Below, one piece after another: positions 38,601 to 41,600 of a DNA stretch of 64,000 nt. Origin of the DNA: Escherichia coli (GTDB taxonomy: Bacteria; Pseudomonadota; Gammaproteobacteria; Enterobacterales; Enterobacteriaceae); assembly GCF_024700885.2 (NCBI RefSeq), contig NZ_CP117016.1; one strand, 5' to 3'. Positions within the stretch are counted from its first letter, which is position 1. Every line of letters starts with the position of its first letter. The position numbers are program-made.

Positions 38601-41600
38601 CCAGCAATCTTCGCGGTTCGGGTGGTGGTGTAAACGCCGTCAGACTCTTCGCTCCAGTTACCCGTTTCATTTTTATCTGTACCGCTCACCTCGACCACAC
38701 CGCTACCCGCCAGCAGCGAAGCCATCCCTTTCACCAGGTTTTTCTGCTCATCCATAAGGGTGACGGACACTTTTATCTGGCCACCCGCGGTGTATGTCAC
38801 ATCGTCCGTTTTGATGGTGGAGGTCAGCTGCGAGATATCGCCAGTGATAAAGCTCACTTCCACAGACTGACTACTGCCATTGATCTCGGCCTTGATAAGA
38901 CTGTTTACCGCCTGGTCACTGGCAAGGTTAATGCTGGCAATCCCGTCTTTATCTGTCGTCACAATACCGCCATTTGGATCGGCAAAAACCGCCGCACCAT
39001 TCACGACCGTGAAGGTAACATTTTGTCCCTGCAGTAAATTTTGATGCACATCCCTGACCGTCACAGCGACGGTATTGTGATCGCGTCTGGCAACTGCGTT
39101 ATTCGCGGTGATCTGCATCGCAGCGATTTTGGCGGTATCTTTATCACCCGCAATACTGAACGCATCCGAATGTTTGGTTTTCCAGCCGGGCATCGTCAGC
39201 TGGGCCGTTAATTTGTCGCCAATAAGATGGGCCGTATAGCTTGCTTTATAAATTCCCTCACTTTCTTCCGTCCAGGCACTAACGGCATCAGCCTTCGTGT
39301 TGTCTACTTTAACGGCTTGTTTAAGAAGTTCTTTTCTTCCGGTAACCCCGTTGCCGTTATCATCTCTCAGGGTCACTTTAACGACTATCGGCTTACCCGC
39401 GACGTAATTATCCTGGTCTGTCTCAATCGTGGAGTCAGCGCGGGATGCTGTATTCGCCACGATAGCAATCAGCGCCGGCGTCTTAGCAACATTGTCGCCG
39501 TTAAATTGCGGCATCAGCGATAACGCGCCAGACGTCTTCCCGGCGGTAACTATTTGGGTATAGGTTCCGTTACCGTTGTCTTTCCATTCGCTTAAGGCGA
39601 AATCCTGCAAACCTTTTGCCTGTGTTTTTAACGTCATACCGGGGATCGGCTTGCCGCTGGAATCTCGCGCGGTATAGGTCAGCGTTGAGGTTGATTTTCC
39701 ATCAGCAAGCAGGATTTGCAGATCGACAGAAAGCGTTGAATCGGCGAGGCTTAGTGTGGGTTTTTCCACGACCACCATACTTTCTTCACGCCGGGAGAAA
39801 TTTCCTTTCGAATCTTCCGCTGTAACCGCTATCGGGTAAGTGTTGTCGGTTTCAGGCATTGCCGTGAATCGGTAGGGAGGAATGGTGACCTGAATATCCT
39901 TGCCGGAAACAGCTACTTTTCCGCCCGCTGATTGCAGGGAGGCGGCTTCAATGTCATAACCTTTCAGCGCATATTTGGTTTGCAAGGAAGAAACCAGCGA
40001 TTTAACCTCACCCGGCTTGCCTTTCAACGGATCGGTCAGCGTCAGCCGCACCAGCTCTTTCTTGCGATATTCGAGGACAATATTGTTATTACGATCGACC
40101 AGGTCATAGCGACTGCCCACAAGGCTGCGTCGTGCTGCAACTTCAGCCGGATCGAGCTGTTTTTGCAGTGAATGACCGGGTTGCAACGTCAACTCCATAC
40201 CAATTCGGGTGTCGTTTTCTCCCTGTTTGCCCTGCCGTTGCTCGGCACTAAAGGAGATCAGGGGAACGGGGGTGTAACTCAAACCTGCGGTAATCGCGTG
40301 AGGATCATTTTGTCGCTCGTCTTTACCAAACAGCGCCACTTCATCGCCATAATATTGTTCATAGACCAGCTTGCCGCCCAGCTGCGGCCAGGCCGGTAAC
40401 CAGCCTTCGGCGCGAAGATCCCACCCGTTCGCCGGACGTGCTTCATAGTCATTGTCGAGTTCCGGTGCACTACGCCAGTTACTGAGGCGCAGATAACCGT
40501 TGCCGCTCAGTTTCAGGTAATCGCGCCAGTATTCAACGCCCATCCCGGTTCGGGTGTGATAGCGGGTCAGGTCATGATCGATAAACATATTGACGCCAGA
40601 CATCCAGCTCGATGTGAAATAACGCCAGCCGATACCGTGGTTGGTTTGAGTGCGATCATCCGTACGGTGAAGTGTGTGCTGGCTGAAGACCAGGTTATCC
40701 GGCGTTTCGTACCAGGGATGGAGAAATTCAAATGACGAGCTTTTAAGGCTGAAATCTTCATCCACACCAAGAGATACCCGGGCAGTTCCCCAACGGCTGA
40801 GCCAGTCCGTTGCCTGCGCAGAGGCAGAAGAAGCCACCCAGCCACGCGCCATACTTGCAGCCTGTTCGCTGTCCATATCGCGCGCTAAAAGTGTTCCGCT
40901 TTGCTGCGCCACTTCCGCGACCTGCATTTGCGGATCTTTGCCATCGCGCTCCATCTGCATTGCTTTCAGGTTGCGCGCTTCAGGGCTGTTACTGTTAATG
41001 AGGGGCACATCTATTTCATCGCCCTGACGCACATTGTCAAAGCCCCGCGCAAAGGTACGGAACTGATTCAGGCGACGTAATTCATCAACGGTGATACCAA
41101 AGCGTGCCGCGACCGTTGGTGGCGATTCCAACGCACCCAGGGTATATGGAATAGTTTTAACTTTCGGCAGGATCAGTGACGCGGCAGTATCCGAGTGCGC
41201 AGGATTAATATGCGTAGGGGCAGCAGCCATAACAGGGAAAATAGTTTGTGTTATCAGGCAAATACCGGCGGTCAGACGACGTAAACGATCCCCCAATCCA
41301 CATATGGTGTTATCGCCCCGACGATCGCCATTCCCATGCACTTTCCCTGCCATTTGTCATCCCTGTCGCTATGCGTTCGGATTAAATGACCTTTCTTTAA
41401 CATGAGGGAAAATGATGATTCATGATTAGCAAATGATGAATACAGGCGGAATAATGGAAATAACAACAAGATAAGAACAATACCTGATCAAGGATTATCA
41501 GGAGGAAGAACAGGAGAGCTTCCCGCCAGAGCAGTAACCCCTCCTGTAAATACGTTACTTCATTTTCACCTTTGCGGTGACCAATAACGCCGTCAGCAAC

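Follow-up and report, generated by a model that had tools for sequence, protein, structure and literature searches.

A three-part organization proposed for the 201-bp spacer between nepI and the inverse autotransporter gene iatC at the right end of the Escherichia coli eip/selC-B islet

Is an adhesin gene that lies on the same strand directly behind a housekeeping efflux gene transcribed from a promoter of its own, or is it also reached by transcription from its neighbor? The question is raised by a stretch of Escherichia coli DNA of 64,000 nucleotides (hereafter the window), where the inverse autotransporter adhesin gene iatC, also called air or eaeX (28490–41353, minus strand, 4287 aa), follows nepI (yicM; 42739–41555, minus strand), which encodes an MFS-family efflux pump for purine ribonucleosides (394 aa). 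IatC/Air/EaeX is scored as a marker of virulence in EAEC and in extraintestinal lineages, ST69, ST38, and ST648 being examples. Both gene names are those used by RefSeq (nepI; iatC, EaeX/Air), the nepI coding sequence being the one annotated in the 100%-identical strain 1190, and NepI matches MFS_1 in Pfam (8.5e-40), while iatC was assigned from the ORF list, RefSeq, Pfam and the literature (PMC6714894, PMC7058095). The N-terminus of the adhesin matches IAT_beta (6.7e-109) and Invasin_D3/Big_1 in Pfam, and Invasin_D4 was matched too; the IAT β-barrel, the Big_1/invasin Ig repeats and the invasin-type C-terminal domains expected of an inverse autotransporter are all present, and a LysM domain was recognized by eye in the translation, unscored.

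The original prediction placed the adhesin ORF about 200 bp downstream of the nepI stop codon on the same strand; the ORF list, the sequence and RefSeq agree with it and set the spacer at exactly 201 bp (41354–41554), between the nepI stop TAA (41557–41555, minus strand, from the ORF list and the sequence) and the iatC start ATG at 41353. No possible start lies between this ATG and the in-frame stop preceding it, which excludes a longer ORF, and RefSeq annotates the same start in every genome examined. It is preceded by a leader of 27 nt (41354–41380, minus strand), in which a Shine-Dalgarno sequence, AGGGA at 41364–41360, is read 6 nt before the ATG. A spacing of 201 bp is typical of separate E. 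coli transcription units and is not operon-like, and nepI and iatC do not display the short gap, together with an adjacency kept beyond a single insertion event, that would mark an operon.

Gene content and alignment to island-free strains support the earlier claim that the adhesin is part of an island with its right end at this place. The spacer is the right end of the already published eip/selC-B islet, eicA-eipBCD-eilA-eaeX, which is reportedly known from EAEC 042 and ST69 E. coli through the work of Ren et al. in 2004, Sheikh et al. in 2006 and Fox et al. in 2020. On the plus strand of the window the islet comprises eicA (21457–21954; 165 aa, a TPR_3 chaperone by Pfam), eipB (22202–23983; 593 aa, T3SSipB by Pfam), eipC (23996–25147; 383 aa, without Pfam match), eipD (25191–26540; 449 aa, T3SS tip complex, T3SS_TC by Pfam) and eilA (26743–28440; 565 aa, HilA-like, with a Trans_reg_C winged helix and TPR by Pfam). 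With eaeX/air, these genes lie between nlpA/yicS and yicM (nepI), matching the “six genes inserted between yicM and nlpA” of PMC11068852 and the gene order given in PMC11068852 and PMC7058095. Gene content, order and insertion site are those of the published islet, with the adhesin gene convergent with eilA and downstream of nepI, and nothing essential is different, the adhesin allele here being longer (4287 aa). In the islet literature we found no description of the fine structure of the spacer, namely the junction at the stop codon, the two hairpins and the invariant block.

The promoter, the 5′ UTR, the nepI terminator and the right junction of the island had all been predicted to fall within the gap. 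Alignment to island-free strains moves the junction to the nepI stop codon (41555–41558, without strand), while whatever ends nepI transcription and starts that of iatC must still be located in or next to the spacer. Megablast matches of island-free genomes end at window position 41555 or 41558, and in pairwise alignment with an island-free strain identity extends through ATGAAG (codon 394) and not beyond, nepI ending in ...ATGAAG AAA TCC TGA (396 aa) in island-free genomes versus ...ATGAAG TAA here. The nepI stop codon is supplied by island DNA, and NepI is two residues shorter. On the left side, the junction directly follows the yicS stop (about 21156), and the yicS and nepI flanks align to the island-free strain. 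Since the right junction coincides with the nepI stop, all 201 bp belong to the island and nothing is left of the native 40-bp yicS-nepI spacer, which the islet replaced together with the last two nepI codons. A junction inside the gap was also considered, as the K-12-type nepI end TCCTGATATCAGGTA resembles the second of the hairpins described below (TCCTGAT-N8-ATCAGGTA), and was rejected: the resemblance is attributable to chance, its local alignment score of 19 being reached by about 10% of shuffles.

Among complete E. coli genomes the spacer was present in 751 of 5426 (13.8%), as was a segment that spans both hairpins and takes in the final 10 nt of nepI (751 of 5426), and nepI occurs without iatC in 86% of E. 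coli genomes. nepI adjoins the islet in every genome or contig whose gene context could be checked, and the same layout was found in all 40 metagenome contigs covering the span. In strain ECA64, a 2.5-kb insertion of the IS66 family separates the hairpins from iatC, the frame of which is intact. Neither an iatC orthologue nor a nepI-iatC pair was found outside E. coli in a scan of species representatives, whose matches were confined to E. coli, yeeJ and remote inverse autotransporters, and the comparative data are those of one species at 90–100% identity. Genomes of Escherichia cryptic clade I are reported to harbor air/eilA (bioRxiv 10.64898/2026.04.21.719883).

Two stem-loops occupy the first 75 nt behind nepI. 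Hairpin 1 (41510–41547, minus strand) consists of a 9-bp outer and a 4-bp inner stem with a ΔG of about −21 to −21.8 kcal/mol, followed by UUCUUCCUCC, and its fold is more stable than those of shuffled sequences (z = −3.2; 0 of 200 shuffles folded as well). The outer stem is invariant; the interior and the tail vary, the tail reading UUCUUCCU, UUCUUCCC or UUCUGCCC among strains, and a stable GC-rich stem-loop is here found after the gene without a U run conserved among strains. Hairpin 2 (41483–41502, minus strand; CCUGAU-N8-AUCAGG, 6 bp with an 8-nt loop, ΔG −6.7 kcal/mol, within a range of −6 to −7) is followed by the U-rich UAUUGUUCUUAUCUUGUUGUUAUUU and is the sole terminator-like match of a consensus scan of the gap. 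Its loop occurs as AAUCCUUG, AACGCUUG, AACCCUUG and AACCAUUG, the linker is variable too, and its stem was invariant in nine genome sequences, with one metagenome haplotype carrying a wobble-compatible C-to-U change. In the metagenome contigs, all three hairpin-stem substitutions are C-to-U opposite G and keep the pairing, and no compensatory covariation was seen in the hairpins.

Like E. coli Rho-independent terminators, these stem-loops come right after a stop codon and have pyrimidine-rich tails solely on the sense strand of nepI; unlike them, hairpin 1 has no real U-tract and a variable tail, and hairpin 2 has a weak stem. A terminator-type score of the d'Aubenton-Carafa type, combined with modern energy parameters and its use confined to ranking, was negative for both, with d = −14.8 for hairpin 1 and d = −40.6, the mark of a weak hairpin, for hairpin 2; the score is conservative, since the clean hairpin at the 3′ end of iatC also receives a negative value. 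The terminator search of 41354–41554 proposed in the original prediction did uncover two hairpins, and by consensus scan, folding and d scores no strong intrinsic terminator was predicted in the gap, each hairpin having either a weak 6-bp stem or a poor U-tract. As far as the sequence goes, read-through from nepI is therefore possible. The two stem-loops probably act as weak, leaky terminators, hairpin 1 being a candidate weak nepI terminator or 3′-end stabilizer. Behind them, the 78 nt at 41481–41404 contain only seven G and have a C/G ratio of 2.57 in the RNA sense, within the top 0.7% of windows. This corresponds, in composition only, to a rut-type stretch (at least 70–80 nt untranslated, C-rich and G-poor) and could load Rho, although Rho termination is not reliably predictable from composition.

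The adjacent AT-rich block (41381–41480, minus strand; 33–42% GC) is nearly invariant, being at least 99% identical in 726 of the 751 genomes, versus 99 of 751 for the neighboring 100 nt. Only 1 of its 100 sites is variable, compared with 11 of 75 in the stretch with the hairpins (Fisher p = 4e-4) and 29 of 284 flanking third-codon positions (Fisher p = 2e-3), and in the metagenome contigs the variable sites number 4 of 100 in the block versus 16 of 75 in the hairpin part. Such counts clearly argue for purifying selection on the block. Because the iatC-proximal part of the gap is conserved and is also homologous to the region upstream of yeeJ, an iatC promoter or 5′ UTR of its own is pointed to, and the block most likely represents the activator-dependent promoter and 5′ UTR of iatC; its invariance would also fit an element acting at the RNA level.

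A consensus scan gave no sigma-70 consensus on the minus strand of the gap, and the best minus-strand score with a sigma-70 PWM, 5.05 bits, was no better than background, where sites of at least 5 bits occur about nine times per kb per strand. The best promoter-like match on this strand pairs TTGTTC (41480–41475) with CATTAT (41456–41451) at a spacing of 18. The absence of a strong sigma-70 consensus fits a promoter that depends on an activator. The leader RNA fold is not unusually stable (z = −1.24), and Rfam 15 returned no match at E ≤ 1 in 41000–43000. In the searchable literature, start maps for island-bearing strains included, we found no report of an iatC/air/eaeX transcription start or of nepI read-through. 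On the plus strand, two promoter-like matches of 9/12 are directed antisense into nepI, and no terminator-like match follows them.

A close comparison is offered by yeeJ, a paralogous inverse autotransporter gene of E. coli K-12 whose product is 74% identical to IatC at the N-terminus (the comparison locus, L013, was confirmed to be the E. coli yeeJ locus). About 60 nt upstream of the two genes are alike and equally distant from the start codon: positions −88 to −30 of iatC (41383–41441, minus strand) align with −86 to −27 of yeeJ in the same order and offset, with a local alignment score of 28 versus 18.2 ± 2.3 in shuffles, 6 of 2000 of which reach 28, and CAGGGA is found before the yeeJ start as well. 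Because of this homology, the block appears to have come with the adhesin gene. The surroundings of yeeJ are unlike those of iatC, as both nepI and the hairpins are lacking, and dependence on EilA is not known for yeeJ. The yeeJ promoter was silent under laboratory conditions and yeeJ reporter activity was increased in a pnp mutant (PMC5595812); the yeeJ literature found gives no transcription start.

The block further contains seven TCAT motifs (41386–41439, minus strand), among them the direct repeat CATCAT-TTGCT-AATCAT, with N5 spacing (41438–41422), at −85 from the iatC start. Dinucleotide shuffles contain 2.84 ± 1.37 such motifs and reach seven in 9 of 2000 cases (p about 0.005), and the array may possibly constitute a site for an activator, perhaps EilA. 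The HilA box, as reportedly defined by Lostroh and Lee in 2001, is a pair of hexamers that are separated by 5 nt and precede the −35 element. The one hexamer-N5-hexamer repeat of the spacer would be its point of likeness to the HilA-dependent promoters of Salmonella SPI-1; no such repeat occurs upstream of eicA or eilA in the islet itself. A common EilA box, TTCATCA, upstream of iatC, eicA and eilA was also tried and dropped, since the occurrence of any 7-mer common to all three is not beyond chance (P = 0.16). Passages of PMC4210603, PMC11068852, and PMC7058095 citing Sheikh et al. (2006) describe eaeX/air expression as EilA-dependent, EilA can replace HilA (PMC4210603), and the related adhesin and regulator promoters of yeeJ, iatB and ygeH are silent or controlled by H-NS or LeuO in the laboratory (PMC5595812, PMC6714894, PMC4210603).

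On balance we are inclined, by a modest degree, toward a spacer at the islet end made of three parts, leaky hairpins, a promoter/5′ UTR block belonging to iatC and a Shine-Dalgarno leader, which would leave iatC mainly as its own transcription unit. The nepI transcript would be ended or stabilized only partially within the first 75 nt or so; the following block of about 100 nt would hold the iatC promoter, weak, EilA-dependent and probably silenced by H-NS, together with the 5′ UTR, and the 27-nt leader would serve translation of iatC. Low-level read-through from nepI would be possible and of secondary importance. A stricter separation, in which the hairpins and Rho acting on the C-rich stretch stop virtually all nepI transcription, iatC is expressed from its own promoter only and the adjacency has no consequence, appears rather unlikely. 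The tandem hairpins with conserved stems right after the stop codon, the scarcity of G behind them, the spacing typical of separate units and the iatC frame left intact by the insertion in ECA64 are in agreement with it; neither hairpin, however, combines a canonical U-tract with a strong stem, the tail of hairpin 1 changes among strains, and composition is a poor predictor of Rho termination. We are more doubtful that the block is conserved mainly as RNA, with transcription starting near 41444 from the candidate TTGTTC-18-CATTAT and a 5′ UTR of about 90 nt targeted by an sRNA or PNPase. This candidate is the best promoter-like match of its strand, the homology with yeeJ spans −88 to −30 and the yeeJ reporter responds to pnp, but the match does not exceed background, the fold of the region is unremarkable, Rfam is silent, and the only common polymorphic site (41407) falls within the sole obvious anti-Shine-Dalgarno-like motif, UCCCU.

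It seems improbable that nepI transcription has a function for the adhesin, by supplying basal iatC mRNA or by opening an H-NS-silenced iatC promoter, and that iatC is thereby coupled to nepI regulation. The lack of a predicted strong terminator, the shared strand and the adjacency to nepI in every checkable genome and contig would be compatible with such coupling, and passages of PMC9335307 and PMC10981669 report that transcription invading Salmonella SPI-1 from upstream relieves H-NS silencing. A single insertion site, however, accounts for the adjacency, which therefore does not testify to selection for coupling. The two genes are functionally unrelated, the conserved stems suggest that it is important for the nepI transcript to be ended, and the IS insertion of ECA64 shows that the link can be broken. 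By analogy with SPI-1, leaky nepI transcription through the weak hairpins might help to open an H-NS-coated iatC promoter block for EilA, an idea to which we assign very little probability; if true, a horizontally acquired adhesin would be tied to a housekeeping gene for purine-nucleoside efflux, whose transcription relieves its silencing.

The arrangement of nepI, spacer and iatC is real but ordinary, and the current understanding of the locus is unchanged. Its practical yield is the exact edge of the island at the nepI stop and a candidate control region of about 100 bp at 41480–41381, upstream of which the hairpins are not predicted to be strong terminators, a property that matters for the design of reporter constructs.

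The 3' end of nepI (yicM), whose product is an MFS transporter by Pfam, and the 5' end of the adhesin gene lie on the same (minus) strand. The ORF list and the sequence place the nepI stop codon (TAA) at 41557-41555 and the adhesin ORF, of 4287 codons, from an ATG at 41353 to 28490, and the coordinates of both leave a gap of exactly 201 bp (41354-41554), in line with the 200 bp or so of the original prediction. This ATG is the earliest start available past an in-frame stop, follows a Shine-Dalgarno sequence (AGGGA) by 6 nt, and is the annotated iatC start in all ten RefSeq genomes inspected. 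The adhesin, an inverse autotransporter by its Pfam domains (IAT_beta, 6.7e-109; Invasin_D3, Big_1 and Invasin_D4), is the known IatC/Air/EaeX, and the window, from E. coli, matches strain 1190 at 100% identity in the region tested. The allele (28490-41353, minus strand; 4287 aa) is among the longest, the other RefSeq alleles seen measuring 2933-3996 aa and those of a 2019 mSphere survey 2459-2965 aa (PMC6714894), presumably because of extra Ig-like repeats.

To the left of iatC, Pfam recognized a TPR_3 chaperone (eicA), a SipB-type protein (eipB), a type III secretion tip-complex protein (eipD) and, in eilA, a Trans_reg_C winged helix with TPR repeats, as in HilA; the Pfam search with eipC returned no match. 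Together with iatC these genes are the eip/selC-B islet, described as six genes between yicM and nlpA (PMC11068852, PMC7058095). The nepI-adhesin neighborhood is therefore already on record, and its observation here, where a known islet borders nepI, is correct and ordinary. Neither a description of the spacer nor a mapped iatC transcription start appears in the literature searched on this islet; the present analysis adds the layout of the spacer and delimits within it a 100-bp candidate control region.

The right junction of the island, originally placed inside the gap, was found instead at its edge: nepI-side homology to island-free genomes ends at 41555/41558, so that all 201 bp are island DNA. 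The gene ends with ATG AAG AAA TCC TGA in island-free strains vs. ATG AAG TAA followed by unrelated sequence here (NepI of 396 and 394 aa, respectively), the last two codons (Lys-Ser) having been lost through island insertion and the new TAA being island-supplied (41555-41560). In island-free E. coli, yicS and nepI are convergent and 40 bp apart, and left-side homology ends right after the yicS stop codon. Within yicS itself, the initial third (signal-peptide region; 20860-20925 vs. 2161-2230 in the island-free comparison locus) is strongly divergent between island-bearing and island-free alleles, the remainder being ~95% identical, which suggests that recombination or hitch-hiking reached past the left junction. 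The nepI-yicN interval contains a RelE-family toxin (PF06296, 1.9e-38) paired with an HTH_3/MqsA-like antitoxin (42973-43633, plus strand); the pair is divergent from nepI and missing in the island-free comparison strain. Homology 5' of nepI covers only ~95 nt before its ATG, hence the distal nepI promoter region is strain-variable.

In the nepI/iatC sense, the spacer opens with hairpin 1 (41547-41510; dG about -21 kcal/mol, z = -3.2), followed by UUCUUCCUCC, and hairpin 2 (41502-41483; 6-bp stem, 8-nt loop, dG -6 to -7 kcal/mol), followed by a U-rich run. Hairpin 2 was the sole match in the gap of a consensus terminator scan whose matches overall were no more numerous than in shuffles. Hairpin-plus-tail scores, used for ranking only, were -14.8 for hairpin 1 and -40.6 for hairpin 2; the clean 3'-end hairpin of iatC scored -7.1. 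The stems are conserved across nine genomes and 21 metagenome haplotypes, with three substitutions, every one C-to-U opposite G; variation falls in the loops and in the interior and tail of hairpin 1, the tail reading UUCUGCCC in some strains. No compensatory covariation was found in the hairpins and no Rfam match in the spacer. The RNA 3' of the hairpins is C-rich and G-poor (C/G 2.57, top 0.7% of windows), which, as far as composition goes, would suit Rho loading. These features suggest that the nepI transcript probably ends in the spacer without a strong intrinsic terminator, and that leakage past the hairpins is possible. The K-12 palindrome CCTGATATCAGG resembles hairpin 2, but this likeness, which would have hinted at a junction inside the gap, failed a shuffle test.

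Transcription from nepI reading through into iatC, raised in the original prediction, is weighed here as a reasonable but unproven proposal: the genes share one strand, no strong terminator is predicted between them, and the combination of such a terminator with a mapped promoter, which would have spoken against it, was not found in the gap by sequence analysis. Whether it matters is more doubtful, given that 201 bp is the spacing expected of separate transcription units, that the adjacency is the product of one insertion site and occurs in 13.8% of genomes, that no orthologue was found in other species, and that the hairpin stems are conserved. Moreover, strain ECA64 (dairy product, France) carries a 2.5-kb ISEc23 (IS66-family; 3162-5796 of its locus, window ~41460) in the spacer, at a point that separates the hairpins from most of the downstream block, with iatC annotated intact.

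That near-invariant block (block B, 41480-41381) is AT-rich (33-42% GC), has the motif TCAT seven times in a 54-nt stretch and precedes a leader (41380-41354) with the Shine-Dalgarno sequence. Identity to the window of at least 99% was seen for block B in 726 of 751 genomes, against 99 for the adjacent 100 nt. One of its 100 positions varies in a nine-genome alignment, compared with 11 out of 75 for the hairpin segment (p = 4e-4) and 29 of 284 flanking third-codon positions (p = 2e-3); in metagenome contigs the values were 4/100, with 23 of these positions fixed by the search pattern, and 16/75 in the hairpin part. Constraint on block B is clearly indicated by these comparisons. Positions -88 to -30 upstream of iatC align, at an equal offset from the start codon, with -86 to -27 upstream of its paralogue yeeJ (score reached by 6 of 2000 shuffles), which makes this DNA part of the adhesin gene rather than of the junction. 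A sigma-70 promoter scan of the iatC strand gave no good match. Because eaeX/air expression was reported as EilA-dependent (Sheikh 2006, as cited in PMC4210603, PMC11068852 and PMC7058095), block B is most likely an activator-dependent promoter with 5' UTR, probably subject to H-NS silencing. The TCAT array is no more than a possible EilA site: a motif common to the iatC, eicA and eilA upstream regions stayed within chance (P = 0.16). Block B also contains an 8-codon upstream ORF (ATG AAT CAT CAT TTT CCC TCA TGT TAA; 41397-41423, minus strand), which has no recognizable Shine-Dalgarno sequence before it and is probably meaningless.

Elsewhere in the islet, the eicA and eilA upstream regions (21375-21394 and 26650-26669, plus strand) have in common an 18/20 identical box, AAAATGAGCG(AA/TT)TTTTGATA, missing upstream of iatC, and further upstream both carry TTTCATCACA and then ATCTTA; the box could be a joint regulatory site. 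A perfect 8-bp GC-rich hairpin (TGCCCTGCATATGCAGGGCA, 28455-28474) between the convergent eilA and iatC stops is likely their shared bidirectional terminator. Two loci (L012 and L013) deposited in public MAGs under the names Collinsella sp. and Bacillota bacterium are plainly E. coli contigs (iatC/nepI 99% protein identity; yeeJ 99.8%) and represent bin contamination.
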